From the NCBI GenBank assembly GCA_964472615.1, contig CAYYLN010000002.1:1-24396 (forward strand): a stretch of DNA of 24,396 nucleotides, given 5' to 3'. The translations under genes were made by a program, and so were the position numbers. Shown one piece after another: positions 2,284-23,702 of the stretch. Under the pieces are notes generated by a model, which saw only the letters and a list, made by a program, of their open reading frames with translations, was not told the DNA's origin and did no database searches. Each line of letters begins with the position of its first letter. The first letter of the stretch is position 1. This stretch comes from an uncultured Methanosarcinales archaeon. GTDB taxonomy: Archaea > Nanobdellota > Nanobdellia > Woesearchaeales > ARS49.

Positions 2284-2305
2284 GATAGAGAAATATGTCC
2301 GAAGA

Positions 2306-2313
2306 CTTATAAG
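2306..2313. promoter_or_regulatory. Palindromic TATA box CTTATAAG shared by divergent genes
   Basis: Centre (2309.5) is 26.5 nt from both the minus-strand ATG at 2283 and the in-frame plus-strand GTG at 2336. Confidence 0.6.
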
Positions 2314-2335
2314 GATTTGCGTGTTCGGCAGCGTC

Positions 2336-5572: not shown

Positions 5573-5577
5573 TTGGT

Positions 5578-6132: not shown

Positions 6133-6191
6133 GCCTCATGAGTGATTTTCTTATATATAAACCTTTCTCTTTTAGTCACCAATAAGTAGTA

Positions 6192-6575
6192 TCAAACTAG
6201 GATCGCGTTGACGGTGCCATCCTGGCCAGGCCTCGACGTGATCCTTGCCTTTCCTTTTTCGGTCTCGATGATGGCCCCGCGTACCATGATGTTCCGACGG
6301 ACATAATGGCGGTTCGCTGTGCACTCCACGACCGCCTTCACCTTCGCCGGCGAGAATGTCTTGGTCTTCGGGTCAAAGAGGTTCACGTGATCAGCCGTGA
6401 AGACGCGTGCCTTGATGCCGTTGAACTTCGTCGGATTGACGGCAATCCTGGTCTTGGCGTCGATACGCGTGGCTGTCGGGTGATTGCCAACCTCAAAGCG
6501 CCTCTTTCCCCGTCGCTGGATGTGGCGTCCGCCGCTCGGCGTCCGGCCCACGCCCCCTCGATGCACGATAACCAT
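6192..6575 (-). CDS. rps8e: 30S ribosomal protein S8e (127 aa)
   Basis: GRTPSGGR...RGKRRFEVG, ANRHYVRRNIMVRGAIIETEKGKARITSRPGQDGTVNAILV. ATG 6575 with TTTATAAG ~26 nt upstream. Confidence 0.96.
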   Translation of the reverse strand: MVIVHRGGVGRTPSGGRHIQRRGKRRFEVGNHPTATRIDAKTRIAVNPTKFNGIKARVFTADHVNLFDPKTKTFSPAKVKAVVECTANRHYVRRNIMVRGAIIETEKGKARITSRPGQDGTVNAILV

Positions 6576-6657
6576 GGCTCGAGGAGAACGCAGCCCGCTT
6601 ATAAAGCTTTCTTGTACCACGGAAAGAAATAAAAAGGGCGCTGCTCCCCAAATACAC

Positions 6658-7995: not shown

Positions 7996-8933
7996 CGGGC
8001 GCACAAATACGCATGCAGTATTCGGAGACCATCCTCGAGCGATGTGTGCGGCTTCCAGCCCAAGAGCTTCTCTGCCTTGCTCACGTCCGCATACGTCTGT
8101 GAGACATCGCCCTCTCGCCGCGGCTGGGGATTTCTGATAGCATTCTTACCCACGATTTTTTCAAGCGTCTCAATGAATACGTTGAGCTCCACCGGGCTTG
8201 AGTTACCAAGATTGATGATCTCAAACCGCAGATCAGCGTCCGTAGCAGCAAGCACTCCTTCCACGATGTCGTCGATGAACGTGTAATCCCTGCGGCTCGC
8301 GCCATCGCCGTACACCTCAATCGGTTCGCTACGCATAATGCTCCGCATGAATTTGTACGGCGCCATGTCCGGCCGGCCGCGAGGACCATACACGGTGAAG
8401 AACCGCAAGCACGTCGCAGGCAAACCGAATTTTGCATAGGTCCAACACCAGAGTTCTCCCAAGCGCTTTGTCACACCATAGGGGCTGATTTGCGTGTCCG
8501 CAGGGTCAGTCTCGCGGAATGGAACTTCAGCGCGTTCACCATAGACTGAAGAGCTCGAAGCAAAGATGAAATTCTTGACGTTCGACTTCTGGGCAAGATC
8601 AAGCAGAATGGCGGTTCCCGTGACATTCCCATCATAATAGAGCTTGGGATTCTTGAGCGAAGGACGCACTCCTGCGCGCGCAGCAAGATGGATGACTTTG
8701 TCCGGTTGTTCTTTCGTGAAGGTGCATTGCATCCCGGCTTCATGCGTAATATCCGCCTCGCAGAGATCAAACGACCTATGGCCTACTATTCCTGCAATGT
8801 TGTCACGCTTGATGCGAGGATCATAATAGTCATTGAAGTTGTCGACCCCGACAACGCAATCGCCGCGCTTCAGCAACGCCTCACAGACGTGGCTGCCGAT
8901 GAATCCCGCAGCACCAGTCACGAGGTATTTCAT
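7992..8933 (-). CDS. NAD-dependent NDP-sugar epimerase/dehydratase (UDP-glucuronate 4-epimerase/WcaG-like SDR)
   Basis: VTGAAGFIGSH, HLAARAGVRPS, ASSSSVYG, YGVTK, LRFFTVYGPRGRPDMA, RDYTFIDDIVEG. Confidence 0.93.
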   Translation of the reverse strand: MKYLVTGAAGFIGSHVCEALLKRGDCVVGVDNFNDYYDPRIKRDNIAGIVGHRSFDLCEADITHEAGMQCTFTKEQPDKVIHLAARAGVRPSLKNPKLYYDGNVTGTAILLDLAQKSNVKNFIFASSSSVYGERAEVPFRETDPADTQISPYGVTKRLGELWCWTYAKFGLPATCLRFFTVYGPRGRPDMAPYKFMRSIMRSEPIEVYGDGASRRDYTFIDDIVEGVLAATDADLRFEIINLGNSSPVELNVFIETLEKIVGKNAIRNPQPRREGDVSQTYADVSKAEKLLGWKPHTSLEDGLRILHAYLCAR

Positions 8934-9078
8934 GTGTCGGAAACCCCTTGCGCGGAAACCACTGGCTTCAGCCTGTTGGAGGAAGCGCGGGGTTTCCGAA
9001 CATGCTCAAGAACCACTTGCCATTTGGCAGCACATTGCTTATTATTCATGCCACTTGCTTTAGCAAGTGGTTCTTGAC
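8934..9078 (+). mobile_element. 145-bp non-autonomous IS200/IS605-type hairpin element, copy 2
   Basis: Differs from 1282..1426 only at the first base and at 9049 (T vs C). Preceded by TTCAT (8929-8933, includes the epimerase start codon), ends TTGAC. Confidence 0.8.
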
Positions 9079-9100
9079 ACATGCGCAAGAATATCTGATT

Positions 9101-9109
9101 CTTATAAAG
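9101..9109 (-). promoter_or_regulatory. Probable TATA box of the epimerase gene, displaced by the insertion
   Basis: TTTATAAG on the minus strand lies ~27 nt from ATG 8933 once the 145-bp element is removed, the same spacing as other promoters in the window. Confidence 0.55.
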
Positions 9110-9227
9110 ATGCGCCATCGCTACGGAAGCTTTATAAACTTCCTGCGGATTTCGCCGAGTAACTTTTGGGGCAGCGCCAACTGCAGTCGGCTGGTCCCAA
9201 AATGCTTACATTTTGGGGTGATTAACC

Positions 9228-9449
9228 TTGGAATCAAGACCATTAGATGCGCTCAATCGCGCTCGGGATAAGAAAGTCATGGTGGAGCTGAAGAACGGCA
9301 AGCAGTTCATCGGCTTGCTCCGCGCATTCGACATCCACATCAATTGCGTGCTCGATGACACTGAAGAACGCGTGGAAGGCAACGTGACGAGAAAGCTCGG
9401 CACCACATTCCTCCGCGGAGACATGATCGTCCTCATCTCACCGCAGTAA
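9228..9449 (+). CDS. lsm: Sm-like (Lsm/SmAP1) RNA-binding protein (73 aa)
   Basis: RPLDAL...VELKNG...GLLRAFDIHINCVL (Sm1) and TFLRGDMIVLISP (Sm2). TTG start after GGGGTGA. Adjacent to rpL37e as is usual in archaea. Confidence 0.95.
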   Translation: MESRPLDALNRARDKKVMVELKNGKQFIGLLRAFDIHINCVLDDTEERVEGNVTRKLGTTFLRGDMIVLISPQ

Positions 9450-9514
9450 CCTCACGAGTTAACTAATTGACTAGGACCTAGTTAACTAGGAAACGAACAA
9501 ACAAGGTAACGAAA

Positions 9515-9676
9515 TTGAAAGGAACCTATTCGATGGGCAAGAGGAGCCGCGGCAGGTCGCACATCATGTGCAGACGCTGCGGCAGGCATAGTTACAATGC
9601 CGCGAAAAAGGTATGCGCGAGCTGCGGCTTCGGCAAGTCTGCCAAGCTGCGCAGCTACAAGTGGCAGACGTTCTAG
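9515..9676 (+). CDS. rpl37e: 50S ribosomal protein L37e (53 aa; not in the ORF track)
   Basis: Translated by hand: (TTG)[52 protein letters not shown]. CxxC...CxxC zinc finger, AAGGT upstream. Confidence 0.95.
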
Positions 9677-9972
9677 ATGTCGAAAACTGCTCTTGACGTA
9701 CCCTGCGGACTTTAGTCCGCCAGAAAGGACGAGCAGTTTTCGAGCATGACTTGACCAACGCTGCTGCGTTGTCATCTCGACAAGCAAAGCTTGTCGACGT
9801 CTCGCCAATCATTAGATTGGCGATGAACTTGAATAACTTTGTTATTCAAGTAACTTGAGAAACGCGGTTTCTCAAGTTCGTCGGAAATCAGCGGATTTCC
9901 GAGACTCAACAACCACGAGCAAATTTTGATGGCGTGTAGTCACGCCACTCGCTTTAGCGAGTGGTTGTTGAC
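9677..9972 (+). mobile_element. 296-bp composite hairpin element related to the 145-bp element, with an internal array of six hairpins
   Basis: Left module TGTCGAAAAC...GCGGAC-TTTA-GTCCGC...GTTTTCGAGCATG; right module TCAACAACCAC...CCACTCGC-TTTA-GCGAGTGGTTGTTGAC. Ends covary with the 145-bp copies. ATGTC occurs at 9677 and 9973. Confidence 0.6.
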
Positions 9973-10184
9973 ATGTCAAAAAGAATGCCTTGTTGTTCCT
10001 CACAATTGCCATTGCACTGGGCTTGCACATTCTCGCTCACCTCTGGCAGGTGTACGGACCAGAACAAGCACGCCTTTAATGGGGTGTTGGCCATAACGCA
10101 GTGCAAGCTTTGCATGCACTCTTCATCTGGTACGAGGCCAAGTAATTCTGCGCTACCTATATATAATAGCCAATTATCCATCAT
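9954..10184 (-). CDS. Possible small Cys-containing protein; last codons contributed by the 296-bp element
   Basis: 76-codon ORF, start uncertain (10184 or 10115). Removing 9677..9972 gives ...ILFDI* with a TAG overlapping the rpL37e stop. Confidence 0.35.
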   Translation of the reverse strand: MMDNWLLYIGSAELLGLVPDEECMQSLHCVMANTPLKACLFWSVHLPEVSENVQAQCNGNCEEQQGILFDMSTTTR

Positions 10185-10194
10185 TTAACTTTTC

Positions 10195-10278
10195 GCGGCT
10201 GTGCCGGAGTGGCCAAACGGGGCAGGCTTAGGACCTGCTGGCTTAGTGCCTTCCAAGGTTCGAATCCTTGCGGCCGCA
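10195..10278 (+). tRNA. trnL: tRNA-Leu (anticodon TAG), CCA not encoded
   Basis: Acceptor GCGGCTG/CGGCCGC, D-loop AGTGGCCAAA, anticodon arm GCAGG-CTTAGGA-CCTGC, long variable arm, T arm CAAGG-TTCGAAT-CCTTG. TATATATAA at ~10158-10166. Confidence 0.97.
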
Positions 10279-10334
10279 TGAGCTTAGCAAATGCGACGCA
10301 AGGCCAATCAACGAGTGTAGCGAAGTTGACGCTG

Positions 10335-10348
10335 CCTTGCGGCCGCAT
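10335..10348 (+). repeat. 14-bp direct repeat of the tRNA-Leu 3' end (CCTTGCGGCCGCAT)
   Basis: Identical to 10266..10279, 69 bp downstream. Confidence 0.75.
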
Positions 10349-10811
10349 TAATTCTTATGAGATAAAGCGCTATCTGGATTCGATGCCTATGGCGCAGGTG
10401 TTGCCGACAGTGCCTGAACAAGGTACATCAGATACCTTGCATTTTCATCGAGTTATCCTCTATAAAAAGCAAAACAGTATACTGCTATGATCCTGAAATC
10501 TGGACGATTCGTCTAGTGCCATTAGCAAGTGACACTGCCCTGTAATGCCAGAAATCTGGCATTATAGACTGAGTCGGTATTTTCCCGACGACTAAGTGAG
10601 GGTGATTTGCGAAAAATTTATAAAAAAAGTTGGTAAACTCTAGGGCGACAGTCAGTGCCATCGTATGGCTGGCTGGAAATAGGAGAACGTGTATGCTCAG
10701 TCATATATGTTCGTATGTGTAAAAACTTATATAGCCGCGCCAAAGACAGGCGCAGAAATAAGTCTTTACGAACTGTAAAGATTAGCCAAAAAACACGGAG
10801 GTGTTTGATAG

Positions 10812-13364
10812 ATGAAAGCAATACAAGCGATTAAGAAGATGGTTGCTCTTGGCATGGGCGTTACCATGGTGGGTGCAACAATCTTTGGTGCTTCGGCAGT
10901 TCAATTGTCTGACTGGCCTGCGCCATTTGTCGTTGATGGAACGCCTGCTTCTAACCTGGCCGTTGTGGTCGGTGATGCAGCAGACGCTATTGACGTCGTC
11001 GGCATGGGCGACATTGTCGCAGCACTGCAAGGAGCTTCCGTGGTCAAGACGACCACAGGTGGTGGCGGTGGCACAGGCGTCGTTGTTGAAGGCGACGCTG
11101 TGGAAATCGGCAGCACTTCGGACTTGCTCGAGATCAACGAAACAATTGGTAACGTTCGTGAAACCCTCACTGAAGTCGACCTTGACATGCTGAAAGGCGG
11201 TCAGATCGTGACTGATGAGGGTTCGACCGAGTACAACCAGTACTTGAGATTCGTAGGAACATCCGGTGCCACTACGACTGGTGAAGCATACCCACCGAAC
11301 GGAGCAGTCTTGTTTGCAGAGGACGAGCGAGACCGTGTGGGACACTACCTTCGCTGGAACGGCGGAAACCGAACCTTTGAATGGGAGCTTGAGTTCGAAG
11401 AAGGACTTGAGTCTGAAACCCAAGGCGATGACCTGGTCGACCTCGAGGACGAGGACATTATCATGCTGGGCCAGCCCTTTGTGATTGTTGACACAGACCT
11501 CCGAAACGCAACCATGGAATTGACCATCGAGCTGATGGGCGGAGCCATCTCTGCAATCCTTGGCGAAAACGACAAGGAAACGTATGTCGTTGACGGCAAG
11601 GAATACGAAGTCGAGGTTCTCGTGATTTCCGAAACCGCCAAGGACGGAGAAGGAGCCGTAAAGTTCCGCGTCAACGGCGAAATCACTGACGAACTCGAAG
11701 ACGGAGAGACTGACGTGCTCGCAGACGGAACCCAAATCGGTATCCGCGACATCCTTGCCACGGGTAAGGACATCCAAAAGAGCATCGTGCAGTTCTACAT
11801 TGGCGCGTACAAGGTGGAATTCAACGACGATGCTGACGAAACCGCCTTTAGGAGAGGAGGAACAGAAGTGAATGAAGAGACCATCGAGGACTCGCAAGTG
11901 CAGCTTGTTGCTGCATTCACTGATGCGCCGACAAACCGGAAGGTAGAGATCAGCAGCATCATCTACCGGCTGGATGCTGATGCGGTCTTGGGAGATGTTT
12001 ACATCCCGCCAGGAAGCGGCTTGCGTGAACAGCTCGACGAACCAGAAGGCATGTTGACGCCGTTCTGGGACATCCGCTACGAAGGATTGATGGACACCGG
12101 CGTGACCATCGTCCGTGTTGATGCAGCAGGTGATGACGAGTATGACCTTGAATTCACCAACCAGGAAGGCATCTTTTACGACGTGCCGCTGGCAAGCAAC
12201 GAAGGCACCTTCTACAAGTTCGGTGACGACGATGACGACCTGTGGTTCATTGAAAGCGACAGGCACATTATTTCAGATGACGACTTTTTCGTCCTGAGCG
12301 ACTGCCTTGTCGCTGCGAACGACAACACGTGTTTCACCCACGTCCTCAGGTTTGACAGCATTGATGCTGCAAACAGGGGATTGACCTTCACCGACCTTGG
12401 AACAGGCACGCGTGAAGTCACCTATACTGCTGCTGGAGCAGCGAACCTGGTTGTGGGCGGACTCACGTACGCAGTCAACGTAAACACTGCCACAAACACG
12501 TCCATCTCTGTCGACCTGAACGCTGACGGCACCCGAGACAACACCTCGAAAGTCTTCATCGGCATCCAGGGCGAGGGTATCATTGACCTTGCGGTCAATG
12601 GAACGTTTAACGGCAGTCAGTATGGTCTCTTCCACCAGCTGGCAAACGTGACGCCGTTCAACATCACGCGAATTGATGGAGACGTGTTCGTCATGAACTT
12701 GTCGACCATGACCAAGGAATTCGACGCGGCAACAACGCGTGAAAACATTATCTGGGAAATCATAAGGCGAACCAACAATCAGATTGGCATCCAGCTAATC
12801 AGCGGACCGAACGGAGGCCTCTTTGGCCCATTCGACCTCGAAGAGAACGAGGACCTTGAACAGGCATTGTCCGTCTATGGTGTCTTCCTGGAGCTGTTCG
12901 ACCCAACCACCAGCACCGAGGCAGAAGACCTCACGATTGAGTACCCGCTCTCGCAGCGTGGCGCTCGTGTGTTCGTGACCGGTGGCCTTGTCAGCACGAC
13001 GGCAGTCGAAAGCGGCACGAATGAACGTGTCCAAGCATTGCCGGTTGGCGTAAGCAAGCTGGCGAGCGAAGTGGCTGACGTCACGCAGTTCAACGCCATT
13101 GTTGTTGGCGGTCCTTGCGCGAACCCCATTGCAGCACAGCTCATGGGCAACCCTGAGCCCTGCTGGGAATCAATCAGCAAGGCAGTGGTCAAGGTGTACG
13201 AGCACTCCAACGGTAACGTTGCGATGCTCGTGGCCGGCCGAAGTGGTCAAGACACGCGACGTGCAGCCCGTGCGGTTGCGACTGGCCAGATTGCCAGCGT
13301 GAACAGCAAGGAAGCTGAAGTCAGTGGCACGACCATGACTGATATCATGGTGAAGGCGGTTTAA
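10812..13364 (+). CDS. S-layer protein (850 aa; Methanococcales-type N- and C-terminal S-layer domains)
   Basis: MKAIQAIKKMVALGMGVTMVGATIFGASA signal; LSDWPAPFV, VVVGDAADAIDVVG; C-terminal NAIVVGGPCANPIAAQL...LVAGRSGQDTRRAA. Very acidic, several N-x-S/T sequons, SD GGAGGTG at 10797-10803. Confidence 0.88.
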   Translation: MKAIQAIKKMVALGMGVTMVGATIFGASAVQLSDWPAPFVVDGTPASNLAVVVGDAADAIDVVGMGDIVAALQGASVVKTTTGGGGGTGVVVEGDAVEIGSTSDLLEINETIGNVRETLTEVDLDMLKGGQIVTDEGSTEYNQYLRFVGTSGATTTGEAYPPNGAVLFAEDERDRVGHYLRWNGGNRTFEWELEFEEGLESETQGDDLVDLEDEDIIMLGQPFVIVDTDLRNATMELTIELMGGAISAILGENDKETYVVDGKEYEVEVLVISETAKDGEGAVKFRVNGEITDELEDGETDVLADGTQIGIRDILATGKDIQKSIVQFYIGAYKVEFNDDADETAFRRGGTEVNEETIEDSQVQLVAAFTDAPTNRKVEISSIIYRLDADAVLGDVYIPPGSGLREQLDEPEGMLTPFWDIRYEGLMDTGVTIVRVDAAGDDEYDLEFTNQEGIFYDVPLASNEGTFYKFGDDDDDLWFIESDRHIISDDDFFVLSDCLVAANDNTCFTHVLRFDSIDAANRGLTFTDLGTGTREVTYTAAGAANLVVGGLTYAVNVNTATNTSISVDLNADGTRDNTSKVFIGIQGEGIIDLAVNGTFNGSQYGLFHQLANVTPFNITRIDGDVFVMNLSTMTKEFDAATTRENIIWEIIRRTNNQIGIQLISGPNGGLFGPFDLEENEDLEQALSVYGVFLELFDPTTSTEAEDLTIEYPLSQRGARVFVTGGLVSTTAVESGTNERVQALPVGVSKLASEVADVTQFNAIVVGGPCANPIAAQLMGNPEPCWESISKAVVKVYEHSNGNVAMLVAGRSGQDTRRAARAVATGQIASVNSKEAEVSGTTMTDIMVKAV

Positions 13365-13375
13365 GGCCTTCCCAA

Positions 13376-13400
13376 TTTTTTCTTTTTATTCTTTTTTCTT
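13376..13400 (+). terminator. Oligo(T) archaeal terminator
   Basis: TTTTTTCTTTTTATTCTTTTTTCTT 12 nt after the S-layer stop. Confidence 0.75.
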
Positions 13401-13556
13401 CTCCATTGTCTGTTCTTTCCCTACTGGGCAACTTGGACGGTAGGAATACAAGAGAGGCAGCGTCAACACTCGTGAATCGTTCATTCACACGTGTTGACTG
13501 GTCTCTTTTTTATGATGTGTATACCCAAGAGTGAGCATAAAAAGAGGTGAACTTTC

Positions 13557-14234
13557 ATGGCATTTCAGCAGTTTTTGAGCAATATCGGCGCGTCCGTCGT
13601 GGACCCCTTTGTGAGCATCTGGTATTGGCTCGTCAAGGCCGTGCCTGACGTCATCGCGGCCATTGTGATACTCGTCGTTGGATACCTTGTGGCACTGGCA
13701 GTTTCTACAATCCTGGAAAACGTGCTCAACCGCATCAAGTTCGACGAATGGGTCTTCAAAAAGACCAACCTGTCGCACGCGATCGGCACCTTTGACCTCA
13801 CCCGCTTCCTGGGCGTGGTCACCAAGTGGTACGTCATCGTGCTCTTCCTCGGCGCCACAGCCGCACGGATTCAATTGGAGACCCTGGCAACATTCCTGTC
13901 TGCGCTCTCGCTCTGGATACCGCAAGTCATCGTGGCAGTCGTGATGGGCCTGATCGGTATCATGGCAGGCATGTACGTGGAGAAGAAAATCACTGAGACT
14001 CGCGCCAAGGGCGCTAAGGTCGTGGCAATGATTGCCAAGTGGGTCATCTACGTCTTCACCGTGCTTATCGTGCTCAGCCAGATTGGTGTAAAGGTCGTTC
14101 TCGCAGAGAACAGCTTCCTCATCATCCTGTCAGGCGCAGTGTTGATGCTTGCGCTGATGCTCGGCATCAGCTTCGGACTGGGCTTCAGGGAAGAGGCGAA
14201 GAAGATCATCACTGACGTCAAGCGCAAGCTGTAA
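13557..14234 (+). CDS. Multi-pass membrane protein, CmpX / conserved TM-helix (MscS-related) family (225 aa)
   Basis: PDVIAAIVILVVGYLVA...LNRIKFDEW, LWIPQVIVAVV, LALMLGISFGLG. About five hydrophobic helices; SD GAGGTGA. Confidence 0.75.
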   Translation: MAFQQFLSNIGASVVDPFVSIWYWLVKAVPDVIAAIVILVVGYLVALAVSTILENVLNRIKFDEWVFKKTNLSHAIGTFDLTRFLGVVTKWYVIVLFLGATAARIQLETLATFLSALSLWIPQVIVAVVMGLIGIMAGMYVEKKITETRAKGAKVVAMIAKWVIYVFTVLIVLSQIGVKVVLAENSFLIILSGAVLMLALMLGISFGLGFREEAKKIITDVKRKL

Positions 14235-14240
14235 ACGCCA

Positions 14241-14270
14241 TTTTTTCTTCTTTTTTATTTGATTTTTTAT
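14241..14270 (+). terminator. Oligo(T) archaeal terminator
   Basis: TTTTTTCTTCTTTTTTATTTGATTTTTTAT directly after the stop at 14234. Confidence 0.7.
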
Positions 14271-14355
14271 GACCACTCCATTCATGACTCCTCCCGAGTG
14301 AGCAATAAATCTTTTAATACTTCCTGTCAGCGAGTGCATAAAAGAGGTTTGTTTG

Positions 14356-16179
14356 ATGAAGAGCATTATCACCTTGTTTGTCATACTCATTCTTTCCTTG
14401 TCTTTAGTCACTGCAATCGAGATCAGCAAATCAGTCATCAGTCAAATAAAACCAGTCAGCACCAAGATTGTGCCAAAACTCATCCCACTCCAGACTTGTG
14501 CGCGTGACGGACAACGCGCAGAAGATTATGGCGGGCGTTGTTGCGAAGGACTCAGCCAAGTGCGTGGCACGTGCTATCCTGGCCCAGACTGCGCCATCAC
14601 AGGACAACGCGCAGTAGACTTTCCGGAAGGATGCTGCGAAGACCTCGTTGCCAACCCCCAAGGAACCTGTGAATGGCGTTGCGCACGCCAAGGAGAAAGC
14701 TCCTACGGCTCAATCACGTGCTGCCAAGGGCTGTATCGCGACCCCAATCACATCTGCAGATCCTGCGCACCAGAAAACCAACGAGCAGCAGACTACGGAA
14801 ACATTTGCTGTGCTGGACTTACGAATCAAGGAGGCATTTGCACCAGACAACAACGTTGTGCTGGTGCTGGTTTGAATGCGGCAGTGTATGGTGGTGGGCG
14901 ATGTTGTGAGGGCTTAGTGTTGGTGGGTGGTGTGTGTAATGTTCCTCAAGAGCCCCCTGCAGAACGTTGTGCTGGTGCTGGTTTGAATGCGGCAGTGTAT
15001 GGTGGTGGGCGATGTTGTGAGGGCTTAGTGTTGGTGGGTGGTGTGTGTAATGTTCCTCAAGAGCCCCCTGCAGAACGTTGTGCTGGTGCTGGTCTGAGCG
15101 CGGTGGTGTATGGTGACGGACGATGCTGTGAAGGCCTGGTATTAGTTGGCGGCATTTGCAATGTTCCACGTGAAGAAGAACAATGCGTAGCTGAGGGTGA
15201 AGCACGAGGGTTCTGGGACATTATATTTGGACGACAGTGCTGTTCAGGTTTAGAACTCAGAGAAGGGGTTTGTCGTCGACCAGGCGAAGAGCGTTGTGCT
15301 GGTGCTGGTCTGAGCGCGGCAGTGTATGGTGACGGACGATGCTGTGAAGGCCTGGTATTAGTTGGTGGTCTCTGTAATGTTCCTCGTGGTGAAGAGCGCT
15401 GTGCTGGTGCTGGATTACGCGCAGACCTTTCTGGCGGTCGCTGTTGTGAGGGCTTGATTTTGCAAGGCGGTTTGTGTAATGTTCCTCGTGGTGAAGAACG
15501 CTGTGCAGGACCTGGCCTTCGCGCTGATGTGTATGGTGACGGACGATGCTGCGAAGGCCTTGTGCTCGTTGGTGGTCTTTGTAATGTCCCTCGCGGCGAA
15601 ATTCCACCAGCAGAAGAAGTCCCACCTGAAGAAATTCCTCCTGCAGCATGTGATGCCTGTGGTGAAATCGGAGGCCTCAGAACAGAAATAACTGAAATCA
15701 CGAGCACCATTGCAAATCTTCAACGCCAACTCAACATTTTGCTTTCCTTGCGATGCGCAGGCCCTGGCCTCAAGCCAGACCCGTACACTGGCCGCTGCTG
15801 CCAAGGACTCATCCTCATCAAGGGCATCTGCAATGTCCCGCCTGCAAAAGCACCTGATACGCAATGCGCAGGCGAGGGCCTGCGAGCAGACATGTATGAG
15901 GGAACGTGTTGCGAAAACCTCATAGAAGTCGGAGGCATTTGCCGCAAGCCAACCAAGCCAGAATGCGCAGGACCAGGACTCAAAGCAACAGAACGAGGCA
16001 AGCGCTGCTGCCTTGGGCTTGTCCTTCGAGGAGACACGTGCGTGCTCCCGCCTTCACCTGCAGACTACTTGGGCCAATGCGCAACCGAAGGCCTCCGGGC
16101 AGACATGTACGGCGAACGCTGTTGCGGAGACCTTGTTGAAATCCAAGGCATTTGCCGTGCACTACCCCTCTTGGGGTGA
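14356..16179 (+). CDS. Secreted Cys-rich repeat protein (607 aa, 15 C-x12..17-CC-x9..10-C modules plus a CxxC/coiled-coil segment)
   Basis: Signal MKSIITLFVILILSLSLVTA; module consensus CAGxGLxAxxYGxGRCCEGLxLxGGxC. ATG 14356 preferred over TTG 14353; AGAGGT upstream. Confidence 0.85.
   Translation: MKSIITLFVILILSLSLVTAIEISKSVISQIKPVSTKIVPKLIPLQTCARDGQRAEDYGGRCCEGLSQVRGTCYPGPDCAITGQRAVDFPEGCCEDLVANPQGTCEWRCARQGESSYGSITCCQGLYRDPNHICRSCAPENQRAADYGNICCAGLTNQGGICTRQQRCAGAGLNAAVYGGGRCCEGLVLVGGVCNVPQEPPAERCAGAGLNAAVYGGGRCCEGLVLVGGVCNVPQEPPAERCAGAGLSAVVYGDGRCCEGLVLVGGICNVPREEEQCVAEGEARGFWDIIFGRQCCSGLELREGVCRRPGEERCAGAGLSAAVYGDGRCCEGLVLVGGLCNVPRGEERCAGAGLRADLSGGRCCEGLILQGGLCNVPRGEERCAGPGLRADVYGDGRCCEGLVLVGGLCNVPRGEIPPAEEVPPEEIPPAACDACGEIGGLRTEITEITSTIANLQRQLNILLSLRCAGPGLKPDPYTGRCCQGLILIKGICNVPPAKAPDTQCAGEGLRADMYEGTCCENLIEVGGICRKPTKPECAGPGLKATERGKRCCLGLVLRGDTCVLPPSPADYLGQCATEGLRADMYGERCCGDLVEIQGICRALPLLG
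14852..15093 (+). repeat. Perfect intragenic tandem repeat, 111-bp unit (37 aa), ~2.2 copies
   Basis: Unit starts AACGTTGTGCTGGTGCTGGT at 14852, 14963 and 15074; units 1 and 2 are identical by inspection. More diverged copies continue to ~15600. Confidence 0.9.
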
Positions 16180-16234
16180 ACAGCAACATTCTTAAATATC
16201 CTCTTCTTGTGCATCTGAAAGGGAGAGTGATCCT

Positions 16235-16879
16235 ATGCCATTTGAAGCAAAAAACTATGACTCATTGTTGGGATTGCAAGGATTTTCTGACCAATTACTG
16301 AAGAATCACTTTACGCTCTATCAAGGCTATGTGACGAACACAAACAAGCTTGCCGATGCTCTTGCCGCGATGCTCAAAGAAGGCAAGCAGGCAACCCCTG
16401 AATTTGCAGAGCTCAAGCGACGCTTTGGCTGGGAATTCAACGGCATGCGGCTGCACGAGCTCTACTTTGGCAACCTGTCGCCGACCAGCAGGTCGGCGAG
16501 CATGCTCGGAAATCAGCAGATTTCCGACATCGCCAAGGGAGACAAGGCAATGCCTGAATCGCTGAAGAAGCAACTCGCCAAGGACTTTGGCAGCGTCGAA
16601 AACTGGGAAAAGGATATGAAAGCCATCTGCGCCATGCGCGGCATCGGTTGGGCAGTCCTGTATTACGACATCGGTAACAAGCGTCTCATCAATGTCTGGA
16701 TCAATGAGCACGATGTCGGCCACCTGACCACATGCGCGCCCATCCTGGTCATCGACGTCTTCGAACACGCGTTCATGATCGACTACGGCATCAAGCGCGC
16801 GGAGTACATCGAGGCACTGTGGAAAGTCCTCAATTGGGAAGAAGCAGAACGACGGCTGAAGCTCGTCGGGTTCAAGTAA
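16235..16879 (+). CDS. sod: Fe/Mn superoxide dismutase (214 aa)
   Basis: Metal ligands in NHFTLYQGYV, EFNGMRLHELYF and DVFEHAFMIDYG. Confidence 0.93.
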   Translation: MPFEAKNYDSLLGLQGFSDQLLKNHFTLYQGYVTNTNKLADALAAMLKEGKQATPEFAELKRRFGWEFNGMRLHELYFGNLSPTSRSASMLGNQQISDIAKGDKAMPESLKKQLAKDFGSVENWEKDMKAICAMRGIGWAVLYYDIGNKRLINVWINEHDVGHLTTCAPILVIDVFEHAFMIDYGIKRAEYIEALWKVLNWEEAERRLKLVGFK

Positions 16880-16936
16880 TCGCCACTGGGCTCGTAACCG
16901 TAAGCTTTATATACTATTGCTTCTTATATAGTTGCT

Positions 16937-17155
16937 ATGGCGACAACCATTCAAATCAGCGAAGAACTGCGCAAACAACTCCAAGAGCGCAAGCTCTATG
17001 AGAAAGAAAGCTATGAAGAGGTCATTCGCGACCTTATTGAGGATACTCTTGAACTGAACGAGCAAACGAAGAAGGAAATGGCGCAATCTCGTGCAGAGAT
17101 CAAAGCCGGAAAATTCCTCACACTTGAACAAGTCAAAAAGAAATACGGGCTATAA
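16937..17155 (+). CDS. Putative antitoxin (RelB-like, N-terminal ribbon-helix-helix, 72 aa)
   Basis: MATTIQISEELRKQL...ESYEEVIRDLIED...GKFLTLEQVKKKYGL. Abuts a RelE-like toxin. TTTATATA 16906-16913 at leaderless spacing. Confidence 0.8.
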   Translation: MATTIQISEELRKQLQERKLYEKESYEEVIRDLIEDTLELNEQTKKEMAQSRAEIKAGKFLTLEQVKKKYGL

Positions 17156-17404
17156 ATGTACGACGTCGTCTTCTCGGAGCTTGCCGACAAACAATTCGGA
17201 AATCTCGACCGTGTTATGAAAGAACGTATCAAATCTGTGCTTGAACGCATCCGCATCCGTCCCGAATCCTATGTCAAGAAACTCGTTGGAGAGCAAGGGC
17301 ATAGTTTGCGCGTTGGTGACTACCGTCTCATACTCGACATCGATCAGGGAAAACTGAGCATACTCGTCATCAAGATAGGACATCGAAGCACGATTTACGA
17401 TTGA
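17156..17404 (+). CDS. relE: RelE/ParE family toxin (82 aa)
   Basis: MYDVVFS..A.KQF..LD...KERI, LRVGDYRLI, VIKIGHRSTIY. ATG immediately follows the antitoxin stop. Confidence 0.88.
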   Translation: MYDVVFSELADKQFGNLDRVMKERIKSVLERIRIRPESYVKKLVGEQGHSLRVGDYRLILDIDQGKLSILVIKIGHRSTIYD

Positions 17405-17413
17405 GGTGATCGA

Positions 17414-17620
17414 ATGATGAAAACAGTCTACGTCTGCGAAGGCAGCTGCAAGGGCATTGCCACCGAAGAGCAATGGAACGCCGGCGCTAAGAGATGCAGC
17501 GCCAAGAACTGTGACCTCTTCCAGAAATACCTGCAGAAGCGCAGCAAGTGCGAGAAATGTGGCGCGATCTTCATGCCTGCAGAGAAGCACATCTGCGTTG
17601 GCGGGAAAAGTTGTTGCTAA
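17414..17620 (+). CDS. Small Cys-rich, probably Zn-binding protein (68 aa)
   Basis: CEGSC, CSAKNC, CEKC, HIC, terminal CC; SD GAGGTGA overlapping the relE stop. Confidence 0.7.
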   Translation: MMKTVYVCEGSCKGIATEEQWNAGAKRCSAKNCDLFQKYLQKRSKCEKCGAIFMPAEKHICVGGKSCC

Positions 17621-17679
17621 ATAGTAGTAAATCATTATTTATCTTCTCTATTTAAAATAATTCTTTTTCCTTGAAACAT

Positions 17680-17725
17680 CGCCGAAACTCGTTTCGGCGG
17701 GCTTCGGGGAACTGCGTTCCTCGAA
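17680..17725. repeat. Two adjacent palindromes upstream of the RNR promoter
   Basis: CGCCGAAAC-TC-GTTTCGGCG (17680-17699) and TTCGGGGAAC-TGC-GTTCCTCGAA (17703-17725); GAAACAT at 17673 and 17723. Confidence 0.65.
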
Positions 17726-17776
17726 ACATTTAAATAAAAACAATCATTGACTTTTGCATTGGAAAAGGGGTAAAAC

Positions 17777-19853
17777 ATGCCTAAAATCATCCAGATACGG
17801 AAAAAAGAAGGTTCTCTCGTGCCTTTTGAAGCCCCAAAGCTCGAAAAATCGCTCGAAAACGCCCTGATCTCTGCCCGGCACAAGAACCCTAAGATCGCCA
17901 AAAAACTTGCTGGCATGGTCATTAACATCCTTGAAAAACACATTCCCAAAGGCATCGTGTCTACGGTCAAGGATGTTCAGGATGTCATCATCGAGGTCCT
18001 GCAGAAGAACAAGCTCCCCCAGATCGCCAAGGCGTATGTCGAACACCGCAAGATTCACAAGGAAGCAGTCGGCTTCAGGACCGTGTACGGTGTCCGTGAT
18101 GACCTGGGCATGAGCACCAACGCTATCATTGTCCTCGCAAAACGCTACCTGCTCAAAAACGATCAAGGCGTAATCATTGAAACCCCTGCGCGGCTATTCC
18201 GCAGGGTTGCAAAAGCGCTCGCCTCAGTCGAGGCAGTGTACGGCAAGAGCGTCAGAAAGGCCGAAGAAGAATTCTATGATCTCATGGCAAACCTCTCCTT
18301 CCTTCCCAACACACCAACACTCATGAACGCAGGCACGCCTCTTGGGCAGCTCTCTGCCTGTTTTGTACTCCCTGTCGAAGACGATTTGCGACAGATCTTC
18401 CACACGCTCGAGAACCAGATGCTCATCCACCAAAGCGGCGGCGGCACAGGATTTTCCTTTGGTCGCCTAAGGCCCCAAGGCGACCTTGTGCGCTCAACGC
18501 AAGGCGTTGCTTCCGGCCCGGTAAGCTTCATGACCATTTATGACAAGGCAACCGAGGTCATCAAGCAGGGCGGCAAGCGCCGGGGGGCCAACATGGGCAT
18601 CCTGCCTGTCGAGCACCCCGACATCGAGGAATTCATCAACGCCAAGCGCAAGCCAGGAATGCTCGAGAACTTCAACGTCTCAGTCTCGATCTCAGACAAG
18701 TTCATGGACGCAGTTGCCAAGGACAAGGAATTCGAACTCATCAACCCGAGAAACAAACAAGCGGTGAAAAAAGTCAAGGCAAGAGGCCTGTGGAACCAGA
18801 TGATCCAATCCGCATGGGAATGCGGCGATCCAGGAATTGTATTCATCGATGAGATCAATCGCAGACAGCCCACGCCCGAAATCGGCATCATCGAGAGCAC
18901 AAATCCCTGCGGCGAAATCCCGTTGCTCCCCTACGAGCCGTGCAACCTTGGCAGCATCAACCTCGCCAAAATGGTCAAGAACGGCAAGATCAACTGGGAA
19001 AAGCTCAAGCACGTGGCCAGAACCGCAACGCACTTCCTCGACAATGTCATCGACGCAAACCGTTGGCCCCTGCCTGAGATTGAACAGATCGCCAAGGCAA
19101 ACCGCAAGATCGGCCTTGGCGTCATGGGCTGGGCAGAATGCCTTGCCCGCTGCGGTATCCGCTACGACTCAGACAAAGCCATTGAGCTCGCGGAAAAAGT
19201 CGCGAAATTCATCCAGGACGAAAGCCGGAAAAAATCAGCCGAGCTCGGCCAGGAACGTGGCAATTTCCCCAATCTGCCCAGAAGCGTCTACGCCAAAAAA
19301 TACAAGACCCTGCGCAATGCGACATGCACGACAGTCGCCCCAACCGGCACGATCAGCATCATCGCAAACGCGACTTCAGGCATCGAGCCCTTCTTTGCGG
19401 TCGCGTTTGTGAGGGACGTCATGGGCGGTACCAAACTCCTCGAGACCAACCCGTATTTCGAACAGCTTGCCAAGGAGCGGGGCTTTTCCAGCAAACAACT
19501 CATGGTCAAGATTGCAAAACAGGGCGGCATCCAGAAAACCCCTGGCATTCCCGCTGACGTGAAGCGTATCTTTGTGACGAGCTTTGACATCAAGCCCGAA
19601 TGGCATGTCAAACACCAAGCCGCCTGGCGACAACGCGGTCAGCAAGACCGTGAATCTGCCTGTGCATGCCAAGCCGCAGGACATTGACAAGATTTACCAG
19701 CTCGCCCACAAGCTCAAATGCAAAGGCATCACGATATTCCGTTACGGCAGCAAGAGAGAACAAGTCCTGTACGTTGGCAAGCAGGCGGCAGAGCACATCA
19801 CCGTCGAGGAAGAATTCGCAGGCGGCTGCCCATCAGGAGTGTGTCCGTTCTGA
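17777..19853 (+). pseudogene. nrdJ: Class II (AdoCbl-dependent) ribonucleotide reductase with N-terminal ATP cone; frameshifted at 19628/19629 (real lesion or assembly error)
   Basis: ATP cone (IRKKEGSLVPFEAPKL), PNTPTLMNAG, LSACFVLP, GGGTG, GKRRGANM, TNPCGEIPL, CNLGSINL, APTGTISI. The C-terminus DNAVSKTVNLP...KGITIFR...GGCPSGVCPF* is in another frame (ORF 19584..19853). Confidence 0.9.
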
Positions 19854-19854
19854 C

Positions 19855-20379
19855 ATGGCAAAGACAAAAGCACCGGTCTATCTCTGGACTGGCCAAGGCT
19901 GGGGAAAGACAACGTCGTCATTAGGAGTTGCCCTGCGCGCGATGGGTCACGGCTACAAGGTCGTCATCGTGCAATTCATGAAAGGCTGGGGTGATGTCGT
20001 GGGAGAATTCAAGATCCGCACCAAGCTCGCGCCCTTGTACGAGATCCACCAATTCGGCCGCAAGGAATGGATCAACCTCAAGAACCCCGCAAAAGTCGAC
20101 AAAGACCTTGCCAAGAAAGCACTTGCATTCGCCAAGAAAAAGGCAAAAGAGAAGCCGTTCCTGCTTGTCCTCGACGAGGTCAATCTTGCCTGTGCCATCG
20201 GGCTGTTGAAGACTGATGATCTTATCGCGTTCCTTGACACGATCCCGCAAGAAGTTCACATCTACCTGACCGGCCGTTATGCACCACCTGCCCTTCTTTG
20301 GAGAGCAGATTACGTCAATGAAATCGTCATGATCAAAGGACCCAAGAAGATCCGCGGCGAGAAAGGCATTGATTACTGA
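19855..20379 (+). CDS. cobO: Cob(I)alamin adenosyltransferase, CobA/CobO/BtuR type (174 aa)
   Basis: YLWTGQGWGKTTSSLGVALRAMGHG, VVIVQFMKG, LVLDEV, LTGRYAP, ADYVNEI. ATG 1 nt after the nrdJ stop. Confidence 0.92.
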   Translation: MAKTKAPVYLWTGQGWGKTTSSLGVALRAMGHGYKVVIVQFMKGWGDVVGEFKIRTKLAPLYEIHQFGRKEWINLKNPAKVDKDLAKKALAFAKKKAKEKPFLLVLDEVNLACAIGLLKTDDLIAFLDTIPQEVHIYLTGRYAPPALLWRADYVNEIVMIKGPKKIRGEKGIDY

Positions 20380-21146: not shown

Positions 21147-21338
21147 TTATTCTTCCTCTTCCTTTTCTTCGTGGTGCTCTTCGTCTTCCTCGTCCTTCTG
21201 TTCAACTTCCTTGATCAGTTCGTCGACTTTTTCAGCGCATTCCTCTGCATGCTTTTCAGTCGTGTGCTCGATCTGCTCGAATTCCTTCTGGAGCTCGGGC
21301 TCAGGATGCTTTTTTTTCTTCTTGATGTCTTCCCCCAT
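21147..21338 (-). CDS. Small highly charged protein (63 aa, basic N-terminus, Glu/Asp/His-rich tail)
   Basis: MGEDIKKKKKHPEPELQKEFEQ...EEDEEHHEEKEEEE; ATG 21338 is ~28 nt from TTTATATA (21363-21370). Confidence 0.6.
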   Translation of the reverse strand: MGEDIKKKKKHPEPELQKEFEQIEHTTEKHAEECAEKVDELIKEVEQKDEEDEEHHEEKEEEE

Positions 21339-21437
21339 CGGGTCGGAAACACCCGTACAGAGTATATAAACATTGGTATTCCCCTCAGTCTGTGGGCATT
21401 GCCAAGTTTTATTAACGACGCAGAATTGGCAACACGC

Positions 21438-23702
21438 ATGGGGGGAGATTACCGCACCATTCAAGCATGGGCTGTGCACAACGTCGCTGACCGCGAACTC
21501 TGTAAGAAAATAAAACAGGACATCCGCGAGGCATGGGGCACCGACAACACCAAAGCCAAGGCAGTGTACGCCTTTCTGTACCGGCTCGGTGAAGCAGAGA
21601 ACCTTCCGAACACCGTAACAAGCATCATTGTGAAAGATCGTGTCAGAACAAGCACGCGCCAATCCTGCAGGGCCTGCGGCACACTGCATGGCGATGGCTA
21701 CCGTTGCTCTCCCGCAAGAGGCAATGATCGCGAAGACCTTGATTTCTTCATCGGATACGTGTGCGCGAAAAAGCGCCTCGCACGCTATGGTCTGAACGTC
21801 GGTGTCCTGGCAGAAGCAGACAAGCGCGGTGCTGAAAAAAAGAAACACAAAATCAGTGAAACCCTCGAGGACTTGGTGCTGCACGAACAAGGCCTTGAAG
21901 TCCTATTGATTACCGGTGCTGCTGGGAGAAATGAAGAATTCATCGGAAACCAACTCAACTGGCTTTTCAAGCATCAAGACAACCTGCCCGAAGACGCCCA
22001 AGTAGCACTTAAACACTTGCGTGATCCCTACCATCGGCCAACACGTCAAGAACTTGCCATTGTCCTCCAAACTGTTGCACATCTGCGCAAATTCCCTGCA
22101 GACGCCTACGAAGGGGTGGCGAAAGACGTAGAGCTCATGGCAAAGGAACAACTTGCTCCTGAGGATCTCGCGCGACATCTCCGCCAGTTCACGTGCCTCA
22201 CTGCACAACAAGCAGACGAATTACTCAGCCAGACTAAAGAAACGTATCGCAGTTTTAGACTGAGGAAAAACACTGCATTCCTGAACGCGTATGAGGACAC
22301 GTCACTCGCATTCATTTTCGACGCGATCATCCCCGCGCTCGAGCACGACCAGCCCTTGTGGCATGATGACCTCGTGAACCAGCGTTATGTGTACAACAAG
22401 GTCTGGGCTCCGCAGGATTATCGACTGGCTATCGGCTGCCTGAATCGTTGGGCCTTTGGGAGCGTCAAGCATCTTGAAGGCGCTGACCGCCTTAGACTAT
22501 GCAACATCGCCACCCGACTTGAATCTGTTCCTGAATTCAAGGAAAAGATCGAAGGATTAGTGGTTCTCAGCAGGAAGCTCGCATACGCGCGCTTTCACAC
22601 ACAAAGTGATGAATACGCGCGGCTGAAACGCGTCAAGGAAGAATTAGCGCAATTATCTGACAAGAAAAAGTACGGAACGTTCACGCAAGCAGCCCGTGCA
22701 ATCGCAGAAGTGCTCAAGGACCCCTGCCGTCTCCTGAAGACCTCATGTATCCCGGTAGAAGCATTTGGCGATACTGCCAAGACCACATTGACGCTTGACC
22801 ACGTGCTTGCAACAATCACCCAAGCATATACGCGGGATGCCCGCATTGTTGACTTTCAAAAGCGCAGCCTTTCCATGATTCTTGAGCATACCGCGTACGG
22901 CATCGTTCGCAAAGCTGATGCCAAAAAACTTGTTCGCATCTACGAGCACGTCAAGAGCTACGCACCTCTCGAACATCTTGCGCAAGAACAGCAGGCAGTG
23001 TGCAGGCTTGTGCGAGAAATTGCACAGAGCGGTCTTGTCAAAAGGATCGCAGGATTCCCTGATTTCCAACGCTTCCGTGAGCCCTTGTCCATTGATCCGC
23101 GAATCTTCAAAGGCGAGCATCAGAACAAGCGCCTTCATGTGCTTCAACGTGTTACTGCATTGATCCATGATGGCTTGGCGCGATTGCCTGGGCAAGGGCC
23201 TGCTGAAAAGAAGATCACGGCAGCCCTTGAGTACCTCAAGATGTGCAGGGCAGAGGGGTATCGCGTACTTGACCTGTATAGCCCAGACACGGATTGGCAT
23301 TCATGGGAAACACCTGAAGACTTCACTGCAACACAACCTTGCCTTGAAACATACGATTCCCCGCAAACCAAAGCCCAGAAGCGCAAGGTGCAAGTCACGT
23401 TCACCGATGTCTCTTGCATCGCGACTCACTACGAGCGCTTCGCGACCGGCGTGCCTGCGCATTCTCCGCAATTCCAATCCCTCTGGAATACCCTCTCCAA
23501 GGCAGCAGCCGATGGCTTGCTGTACGAGCGGAAATGGTCTCGTTCACGAAAAAATTACATCCAGGAATTGCTGCCAGCGAAAGCGCGAGAACCCATTGAT
23601 GCACTGCTGACAGAACCAGTCTCGGTGCAGAATAAGGTATTCATCGCGCGTCCTGTTATGACGCTCTTGCAACAGTATGCTCAGAACGTGCGCAAGCATT
23701 AA
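21438..23702 (+). CDS. Large hypothetical, mostly helical protein (~754 aa) with an N-terminal Cys/His motif
   Basis: Long open frame. ATG 21438 chosen because the upstream in-frame part overlaps the acidic ORF and its TATA box (TTG 21399 is an alternative). CRACGTLH...IGYVC. Confidence 0.75.
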   Translation: MGGDYRTIQAWAVHNVADRELCKKIKQDIREAWGTDNTKAKAVYAFLYRLGEAENLPNTVTSIIVKDRVRTSTRQSCRACGTLHGDGYRCSPARGNDREDLDFFIGYVCAKKRLARYGLNVGVLAEADKRGAEKKKHKISETLEDLVLHEQGLEVLLITGAAGRNEEFIGNQLNWLFKHQDNLPEDAQVALKHLRDPYHRPTRQELAIVLQTVAHLRKFPADAYEGVAKDVELMAKEQLAPEDLARHLRQFTCLTAQQADELLSQTKETYRSFRLRKNTAFLNAYEDTSLAFIFDAIIPALEHDQPLWHDDLVNQRYVYNKVWAPQDYRLAIGCLNRWAFGSVKHLEGADRLRLCNIATRLESVPEFKEKIEGLVVLSRKLAYARFHTQSDEYARLKRVKEELAQLSDKKKYGTFTQAARAIAEVLKDPCRLLKTSCIPVEAFGDTAKTTLTLDHVLATITQAYTRDARIVDFQKRSLSMILEHTAYGIVRKADAKKLVRIYEHVKSYAPLEHLAQEQQAVCRLVREIAQSGLVKRIAGFPDFQRFREPLSIDPRIFKGEHQNKRLHVLQRVTALIHDGLARLPGQGPAEKKITAALEYLKMCRAEGYRVLDLYSPDTDWHSWETPEDFTATQPCLETYDSPQTKAQKRKVQVTFTDVSCIATHYERFATGVPAHSPQFQSLWNTLSKAAADGLLYERKWSRSRKNYIQELLPAKAREPIDALLTEPVSVQNKVFIARPVMTLLQQYAQNVRKH

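Follow-up and report, generated by a model that had tools for sequence, protein, structure and literature searches.

The gene at positions 14356..16179 on the forward strand of contig CAYYLN010000002.1 (assembly GCA_964472615.1, from an uncultured archaeon placed in the Woesearchaeales) encodes a 607-residue protein with 62 cysteines, which is organized as a tandem array of 15 small cysteine-rich modules around a short heptad-repeat helix. We refer to the 24,396-nucleotide stretch that carries this gene as the window. The gene is real and under purifying selection, and comparisons of sequence indicate that its module is a discrete, rare, and previously undescribed domain family. The explanation that we favor, with moderate confidence, is that the product is an exported, non-enzymatic protein of the cell envelope that serves as a disulfide-stabilized, probably oligomeric, multivalent surface binder.

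Architecture and coding evidence

The reading frame opens with an ATG at 14356 and closes with a stop codon at 16177-16179; the 608-residue length under which this open reading frame (ORF) is listed arises from a TTG one codon 5′ of the ATG. Cysteine contributes 62 (10.2%) and glycine 93 of the 607 residues. The first 21 residues (14356..14418, +) form a predicted Sec-type signal peptide (MKSIITLFVILILSLSLVTA, followed by IE after the cut) called from hydrophobicity, with Kyte–Doolittle (KD) values of up to 3.06, and the predicted cleavage VTA/IE places a V-x-A at positions −3/−1. This signal peptide is the sole hydrophobic segment of the protein, for a hydrophobicity scan found neither a C-terminal anchor nor any other transmembrane (TM) segment. 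A Pfam search likewise returned no catalytic domain, and the repeat protein contains no N-glycosylation sequon. An Ile/Lys/Pro/Ser-rich linker (residues 22–47; 14419..14496, +) separates the signal peptide from the modules, and similar linkers follow the signal peptide in four of the related proteins described below (P0005, P0006, P0011, and P0035).

The pattern C-x12–17-CC-x9–10-C occurs exactly 15 times without overlap, 11 times before and 4 times after a Pro/Glu-rich spacer, against a mean of 0.06 and a maximum of 2 modules when the residues of the protein are shuffled 5000 times. Modules 1–5 lie at residues 48–73, 79–105, 109–134, 137–162, and 168–194; modules 6–10 at 205–231, 242–268, 277–306, 314–340, and 349–374; and modules 11–15 at 383–409, 467–492, 504–529, 537–562, and 575–600. 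All 62 cysteines sit either in these four-cysteine modules or in a single CxxC motif, CDAC, whose two cysteines are the only ones outside the modules. The first four modules (14497..14841, +) constitute a divergent class with linkers of only 2–5 residues, and their nearest relatives are modules of P0011, P0014, P0005, P0006, P0016, and P0021. Modules 5–11 (14857..15582, +) belong to a canonical class, CAGxGLxAxxYGxGRCCEGLxLxGGxCNVP, within which module 8 (residues 277–306; 15184..15273, +) is aberrant and carries the insert RGFWDIIFG. Most modules have an Arg or Gln before the first cysteine (C1), and the linkers follow set patterns (NVPRGEER, NVPQEPPAER). The variable loop between C1 and the CC pair contains a conserved Tyr/Phe beside glycines, and the aromatic insert of module 8 falls in the same loop, the obvious candidate for a binding surface.

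The spacer (NVPRGEIPPAEEVPPEEIPPAA; residues 410–431; 15583..15648, +) is modeled with low confidence, at a predicted local distance difference test (pLDDT) score of 57–69. It leads into CDAC (residues 432–435; 15649..15660, +), which reads CDACG with the next residue and stands at the N-terminal end of an amphipathic heptad helix (residues 436–466; 15661..15753, +). This helix is a putative four-heptad coiled coil, with Leu or Ile at eight consecutive a/d positions (I438, L441, I445, I448, I452, L455, L459, and L462). Together with the CxxC motif and the helix, modules 12–15 (15754..16155, +) form a conserved unit that is collinear with residues 124–293 of P0005 (42% identity, E 2e-30); in that alignment the CxxC (CDAC versus CQAC), the helix, and each module match in order. 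The collinearity indicates that the C-terminal unit is conserved architecture, to which the eleven N-terminal modules have been added as an expansion. The clean heptads, the CxxC and helix unit of P0005, and a CDACG pentapeptide shared with the cartilage oligomeric matrix protein (COMP) together suggest that the protein oligomerizes. An earlier reading of the DNA letters alone, which we call the original prediction, had described the 62 cysteines, the 11 + 4 modules around the spacer, the CDAC and heptad-like segment at ≈15649-15753, the insert in module 8, and a secreted product with neither catalytic domain nor C-terminal anchor, and our counts and scans bear out each of these points.

Divergence among the modules shows that the gene is maintained by selection. 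Compared pairwise, modules 5, 7, 9, and 11 are 81–93% identical in protein versus 69–91% in DNA, with ratios of nonsynonymous to synonymous substitution (dN/dS) of 0.04–0.13 at dS values of 0.3–2.2, where synonymous sites are near-saturated. The low ratio implies that the whole module surface is constrained and not the cysteines alone, and the combination of low dN/dS with high dS identifies these modules as old duplicates held by selection rather than products of recent homogenization. Modules 5 and 6 are instead encoded by two identical tandem copies of 111 nt (14852..15073, +; 14852-14962 and 14963-15073, 100% DNA identity), whereas the other module pairs share 44–91% of their DNA sequence. 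This identity could reflect either a very recent duplication, in the sense of copy-number variation, or an assembly artifact, and the true module count could thus be 14. Upstream of the gene, a TATA-box-like element (TTTTAATA; 14313..14320, +), recognized by resemblance to the consensus only, lies ≈36–43 nt 5′ of the ATG, and a Shine-Dalgarno-like GAGG read from the sequence (14343..14346, +) lies ≈9 nt 5′ of it. The T-run terminator of the preceding gene is at ≈14240-14270.

Distribution of the module family

The four invariant cysteines and their spacing hold in 15/15 window modules and throughout a 90-module family alignment, and the family pattern reads C-A-x2-G-x2-A-x2-[YF]-G-x2–3-CC-x-G-L-x4–6-G-x-C. 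Each of the 15 modules scores between 34.9 and 60.8 bits against the module profile. The original prediction had proposed a search with a hidden Markov model (HMM) of the module; run exhaustively over 1.84 billion representative proteins, the module profile recovers 39 at E ≤ 1e-3 and 8 at E ≤ 1e-10, with clusters that are singletons or pairs. All of the named prokaryotic members are "hypothetical proteins" from Woesearchaeota or Aenigmarchaeota, and the named or titled prokaryotic members as a whole come mostly from archaea of the DPANN group (Diapherotrites, Parvarchaeota, Aenigmarchaeota, Nanoarchaeota, and Nanohaloarchaeota) and bacteria of the candidate phyla radiation (CPR). Two matches, P0036 and P0038, were rejected as repetitive translations that match RCCEGL/RCCPGL only, and the fungal P0040 is doubtful and probably to be rejected as well.

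Further searches extended this distribution. An exact-sequence look-up retrieved no record for the repeat protein or for the superoxide dismutase encoded beside it. A genome scan with one module alignment (A3) gave six loci and added Woesearchaeota, Falkowbacteria (CPR), and a metagenome-assembled genome (MAG) labeled Gammaproteobacteria; a second alignment (A2) was too diverse for such a scan. In metagenomes, the close-module alignment returned 11 loci, only 3 of them convincing, and the C-terminal unit returned nothing. A word-index homology search with the full protein gave only three matches, each to a single module, and the same search with the 90-module profile or the C-terminal unit gave none; the word index is defeated by short or repetitive queries, and the exhaustive HMM search is the informative one. 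The locus in the Gammaproteobacteria-labeled MAG (L004, 4648-6903) encodes P0025, a surface protein that combines CARDB, a module, and a coiled coil as in the Falkowbacteria loci. This contig may be misbinned.

Established families do not account for the module. Searches of Pfam, NCBIfam, PHROG, and PDB sequences gave no match at threshold, and within Pfam only DUF7259 (PF23920) and Toxin_7 (PF05980) give any signal. The DUF7259 match scores 22.9 bits over residues 160–183, below the gathering threshold of 27 bits, covers only positions 29–52 of the 77-position profile, and spans a module junction; it recurs below threshold in 6/22 four-module segments of the family. Toxin_7 reaches 13.3 bits for modules 1–4, also below a threshold of 27 bits, and is weak and sub-threshold in 7/22 four-module segments (best E 5.8e-4). 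Most modules and relatives match neither profile, and we assign the protein to neither family. A viral origin finds no sign in PHROGs or in a viral structure library. Our literature search returned nothing directly usable on DUF7259 or on cysteine-rich DPANN proteins. The original prediction had called the family likely uncharacterized and had named a match to a Pfam family of established function as the result that would speak against it; with no such match in these searches, and with 39 representatives whose named members are all hypothetical, its view of the family stands.

The relatives fall into four architectures. Small exported proteins of 3–7 modules form the first (P0004, P0006, P0011, P0014, P0019, P0022, and P0035, the last of which also has a Cys-flanked C-terminal helix), and the second is that of P0005, in which a signal peptide and a Pro-rich region precede CQAC, a helix, and four modules. 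Large surface proteins, encoded also in the Falkowbacteria loci, have CARDB, TIG, or Ig-like domains with one or two modules set between them. In the fourth, a single module occupies the extreme C-terminus of pilin-like proteins whose N-terminus resembles that of archaeal pilins with a class III signal, a call that is a motif reading and not model-based; in one further protein an array of 11 modules follows a bacterial type IV pilin N-terminus. Relatives thus bear signal peptides, pilin-like N-termini, or surface-type domains, and the Pfam domains that co-occur with the module are all extracellular or adhesion domains (CARDB, TIG, PEGA, CarboxypepD_reg, Kelch, fn3, SdrD_B, DUF11, TSP3_bac, Kazal, BNR, and PG_binding_1). 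The canonical modules 5–7 and 9–11 of the window protein are 74–81% identical to single modules found in pilin-like proteins of Woesearchaeota and in proteins of CPR-type architecture, and its 15 modules make up the largest array found. As a separate observation, P0001, P0003, P0012, P0024, and the Woesearchaeota pilin-like protein of locus L005 (4321-6099) have repeated CxDSDGGxNY motifs upstream of the terminal module. The same proteins contain late-nodulin-like cysteine repeats (sub-threshold PF07127), which gives them the appearance of mosaics of small cysteine-rich units.

Predicted fold and comparison with known systems

AlphaFold2 models a single module, supplied with the 90-module alignment, at a pLDDT of 81 and of ≈90 in the core. 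In this model a loop with a one-turn helix follows C1, and the CC pair leads into a β-hairpin (GLVLV-GG-LCN) that carries the fourth cysteine, C4. Inhibitor cystine knot (ICK) peptides rank first when the model is compared with the PDB by Foldseek (asteropsin G, the double-knot toxin DkTx, and tarantula toxins; TM-score 0.5–0.65, E ≥ 0.8), with superpositions at a root-mean-square deviation of 1.7–2.5 Å (1.7 Å over 33 columns); the viral structure library returned nothing for the module model. For the 189-residue C-terminal unit, AlphaFold predicts a helix over residues 429–464 with a core pLDDT of ≈86, a CDAC end at 57–69, and then four copies of the mini-fold. The predicted template modeling score (pTM) of this model, 0.29, implies flexible linkage in the manner of beads on a string. 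Its weak matches to the double-knot toxin, to tandem epidermal growth factor (EGF; Pfs25/28) or furin-like arrays, and to LIM domains carry little weight at that score.

The module resembles the ICK/knottin peptides (asteropsin G, 2N3P; tarantula toxins; DkTx) in its length of ≈30 residues, its central CC pair, and a Gly-turn β-hairpin that holds the last cysteine, and the tandem modules bear a non-significant likeness to DkTx. ICK peptides have six cysteines joined as C1–C4, C2–C5, and C3–C6, with one disulfide threading a ring, and follow the consensus CX3–7CX3–8CX0–7CX1–4CX4–13C (PMC4942781). Every module here has four cysteines instead, so that no knot is possible and the consensus is not matched. 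The hosts also differ in being prokaryotic, the module is not a free toxin but a domain within large or tandem proteins, and sequence similarity is not significant. We therefore do not regard the module as a member of the ICK/knottin class. The knottin likeness drawn in the original prediction, which had itself pointed to the six cysteines of ICK, survives in just that qualified form: ICK peptides head the fold search, at non-significant scores, and the module has four cysteines. The analogy with the C1–C4 and C3–C6 bonds of ICK makes C1–C3 and C2–C4 the most likely disulfide pairing in the module.

In the disulfide-directed hairpin (DDH), two mandatory disulfides stabilize a β-hairpin (PMC4942781). 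The four cysteines and the predicted hairpin of the module are compatible with a two-disulfide hairpin fold of this kind, although sequence similarity is absent and the two occur in different taxa and contexts. In the DDH consensus the second and third cysteines stand about five residues apart, with a Gly or Pro among those residues. The corresponding cysteines are adjacent (CC) in 15/15 modules, and by this spacing the module falls outside the DDH. Hevein and CBM18 domains provide a working analogy from general knowledge: they too are small and cysteine-rich, contain CC-x-G, expose an aromatic residue beside glycines (Y-G-G), and occur in multivalent arrays. Hevein has eight cysteines with a CC-x5-C spacing, however, and thus differs from the module's four-cysteine pattern in both number and spacing; Chitin_bind_1 gave no match even at E ≤ 10, and no hevein-type structural match was returned. 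The C-CC-C pattern of hydrophobins is a formal analogy only, with no backing from spacing or searches.

The C-terminal unit can be compared with COMP, whose coiled coil (PDB 1VDF/1FBM) ends in ECDACG; the final pentapeptide, CDACG, is identical in the window protein. COMP and the thrombospondins resemble it in being secreted, in having a short heptad coiled coil beside CDACG, and in carrying arrays of small disulfide-rich repeats, and the hydrophobic a/d helix that characterizes a COMP-type coil is present at residues 438–462. The two cysteines of COMP reportedly form the interchain disulfide ring of a pentamer, a finding said to be that of Malashkevich et al. in 1996, and our literature search gave nothing of direct use on the Cys68/Cys71 ring of COMP. 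The window repeats differ from those of COMP in not being EGF-like and in flanking the helix on both sides. Neither PDB nor Pfam gave a match of the window protein to COMP, EGF, or thrombospondin (TSP) families, and there is no homology beyond the pentapeptide. Overall, the window protein is best described as representing an unannotated domain family within the small disulfide-rich tandem-repeat proteins of the extracellular space.

Function and genomic setting

In the mechanism that we propose for a multivalent surface binder, removal of the signal peptide would leave 15 autonomous mini-domains of ≈26–30 residues, joined by short Pro/Glu/Arg linkers and each consisting of a loop and a β-hairpin held by two intramodule disulfides. 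The four-heptad helix after CDAC would zip at least two chains into a parallel coiled coil, and interchain disulfides between the CxxC cysteines may then secure the oligomer, in the manner of the CDACG cysteines of COMP. The resulting bouquet would display at least 30 module copies and bind by avidity to a repetitive surface ligand, such as a glycan, the S-layer, or a cell-wall polymer, on the organism's own cell or on that of a host. Multivalent binding is plausible, and it appears the most likely function because the module is found elsewhere only in surface, adhesion, and pilin-like proteins.

Several observations weigh against this proposal. The protein has no membrane or S-layer anchor, which leaves its retention at the surface unexplained, and both the binding function and the ligand are what we infer. 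The fold-search matches are all non-significant (E ≥ 0.07). In the helix, three glycines (G436, G439, and G440) crowd the N-terminal end of a short segment, and the CDAC region has the lower confidence (pLDDT 57–69) in what is a monomer model; CDACG also precedes the helix, whereas in COMP it follows the coil. A scan of window ORFs turned up no gene for a thiol oxidase (DsbA, DsbB, VKOR, or thioredoxin-like), and anaerobic life is common among DPANN archaea. No conserved gene neighborhood surrounds P0005, P0011, or P0014 that would point to a pathway.

An unlikely alternative is that the array serves as a stalk or spacer with no specific ligand of its own: a rod or tether, stiffened by disulfides and resistant to proteases, in the space around the S-layer, much like the EGF-like arrays of eukaryotic matrix proteins. 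The repeat gene does share its strand with an S-layer protein gene two genes to its 5′ side (10812..13364, +; PF05124 S_layer_C, E 4.9e-17), as the original prediction had noted, with only the gene of a small membrane protein with a mechanosensitive-channel (MscS-type) TM helix between them (13557..14234, +; PF05552, E 7.5e-12). Connector-like positions between CARDB and Ig-like domains in the large proteins of CPR-type architecture, the 2–5-residue linkers of modules 1–4, and the weak resemblance of the tandem model to EGF arrays (Pfs25/28) point the same way. A mere spacer would not be expected, however, to show strong selection on exposed loop residues other than cysteine (the conserved Y-G-G; dN/dS 0.04–0.13), nor 74–81% identity between its canonical modules and those of pilin-like proteins and proteins of CPR-type architecture. 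At the very C-terminal end of the archaeal pilin-like proteins, the module is a tip and not a connector. A pTM of 0.29 speaks for a flexible linkage over a rigid one, and a stalk would lack an anchor as well.

It is improbable that the protein is an extracellular metal binder, with Zn, Fe, Cu, or Cd held by each Cys4 module, or a sacrificial thiol antioxidant. Cysteines do account for 10% of the residues, each module has four invariant ones, and a Fe/Mn superoxide dismutase (SOD) gene lies immediately 3′ (16235..16879, +; PF02777, E 2e-27). Small cysteine-rich "dark" domains of archaea have often been read as metal binders (PMC13607799). The tandem model has weak matches to the zinc-binding LIM domain, and the window ORFs scanned include no Dsb-type oxidase. 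Zinc ribbons and treble clefs, however, have paired CxxC knuckles, which are absent from the C-x13-CC-x9-C arrangement; a vicinal CC is also a poor tetrahedral ligand pair and atypical for zinc. The best structural neighbors are disulfide-stabilized peptides, the protein is exported, and the SOD adjacency is not kept in relatives. Strong selection on conserved Gly, Leu, and Tyr residues sets the protein apart from metallothioneins, for it indicates that the module has a defined fold and a functional surface. Other predicted exported proteins of the window have their cysteines in close pairs only (C498/C507 and C769/C784 in the S-layer protein, C327/C347 in a surface protein), which fits local disulfide loops in the exported proteins of this organism. 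Since the modules have no CxxC knuckle pairs, other exported proteins have close-pair cysteines, and the adjoining SOD implies exposure to oxygen, disulfides rather than metal are most likely within the modules.

We consider it quite improbable that the protein is a polyprotein cleaved in its linkers to release many ≈30-residue disulfide-rich peptides of antimicrobial, toxin-like, or signaling function. Multi-domain knottin and cyclotide precursors do release peptides by such cleavage, and ICK toxins are the nearest structures to the module (with sub-threshold Toxin_7 signal in 7/22 segments). The stereotyped linkers (NVPRGEER, NVPQEPPAER), with Arg or Gln before C1 in most modules, would fit a precursor as well. 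The 2–5-residue linkers of modules 1–4 leave little room for processing, however, a precursor would have no evident use for the conserved coiled-coil unit, and no protease, transporter, immunity, or maturation gene recurs beside family members. The module is, moreover, an integral single domain of large surface and pilin-like proteins. On these grounds the peptide precursor that the original prediction had offered among its possibilities is the less likely one. The last alternative, a non-coding or misassembled repeat region that yields a long ORF by chance, could appeal to the perfectly duplicated 111-nt unit, to an apparent frameshift elsewhere in the assembly (the reductase gene near 19630, below), and to long antisense ORFs over the repeat-protein region, but it is already effectively refuted by the divergence of modules at synonymous sites while the protein is conserved, the 42% collinear identity with the independent archaeal protein P0005, the 39 family representatives in public data, and a proper signal peptide with promoter- and ribosome-binding-site-like motifs upstream.

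The remainder of the window is archaeal in content, with genes for S8e, L37e, LSm, the primase small subunit, a class II ribonucleotide reductase (RNR), and tRNA-Leu. An exported protein with no Pfam match is encoded at 6658-7995 (+), with a signal peptide and a C-terminal TM anchor; it contains a thrombospondin-type-3-like Asp-rich stretch bracketed by two cysteines (DNCPDQANENQADADKDGLGDVCDD). Two long ORFs, at 2276-5572 (+; 1098 residues) and 21171-23702 (+; 843 residues), have protein-like composition and no Pfam or PHROG match. A VapB-like antitoxin/ParE toxin pair follows the SOD gene (16937-17620, +), and directly after it comes a 68-residue ORF with nine cysteines (13%) and no family match. 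The class II RNR gene (17777-19870) appears to be frameshifted near 19630: a related Aenigmarchaeota RNR aligns in frame 2 to 19633 and then in frame 3 from 19629 to ≈19847. This alignment indicates that the ORF listed as "CobA" (19666-20379) probably starts later, near 19866 (MAKTKAPVYLW), and the frameshift itself may stem from a sequencing indel, mark a pseudogene, or reflect recoding. The gene for P0035, in an Aenigmarchaeota genome (L020, GCA_016198725.1; 1626-6687), lies less than 2 kb from a gene pair for a class II RNR and a cobalamin adenosyltransferase. The window repeat gene is near the same pair, and the two RNRs are 51% identical. This sharing is weak and possibly either remnant synteny or coincidence.

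Tandem arrays of small disulfide-rich mini-domains, uncommon in prokaryotes, are characteristic of eukaryotic extracellular proteins and of toxins. Should the module turn out to be just a spacer or to bind metal, it would be a modest addition to the domains of unknown function. At ≈27 residues it is a compact scaffold that may also be of interest for protein engineering. The DPANN and CPR lineages are ultrasmall and are generally regarded as episymbionts. The module occurs mostly in these groups, and if it is an adhesion or lectin unit it would offer a concrete and easily expressed candidate for host recognition. Host-attachment molecules of DPANN and CPR organisms are largely unknown (context in PMC12206443 and PMC6142677). 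A bolder proposal, speculative and on present evidence doubtful, is that the two groups share a two-disulfide, knottin-like adhesion module, carried on pilus tips and surface proteins for the recognition of host envelopes, of which the window protein would be an extreme form, a coiled-coil bouquet locked by disulfides that is comparable to eukaryotic COMP and the thrombospondins and bears dozens of modules for high-avidity attachment. If this is true, the protein would be a prokaryotic counterpart of the matricellular proteins and would give a handle on how symbionts find and hold their hosts.

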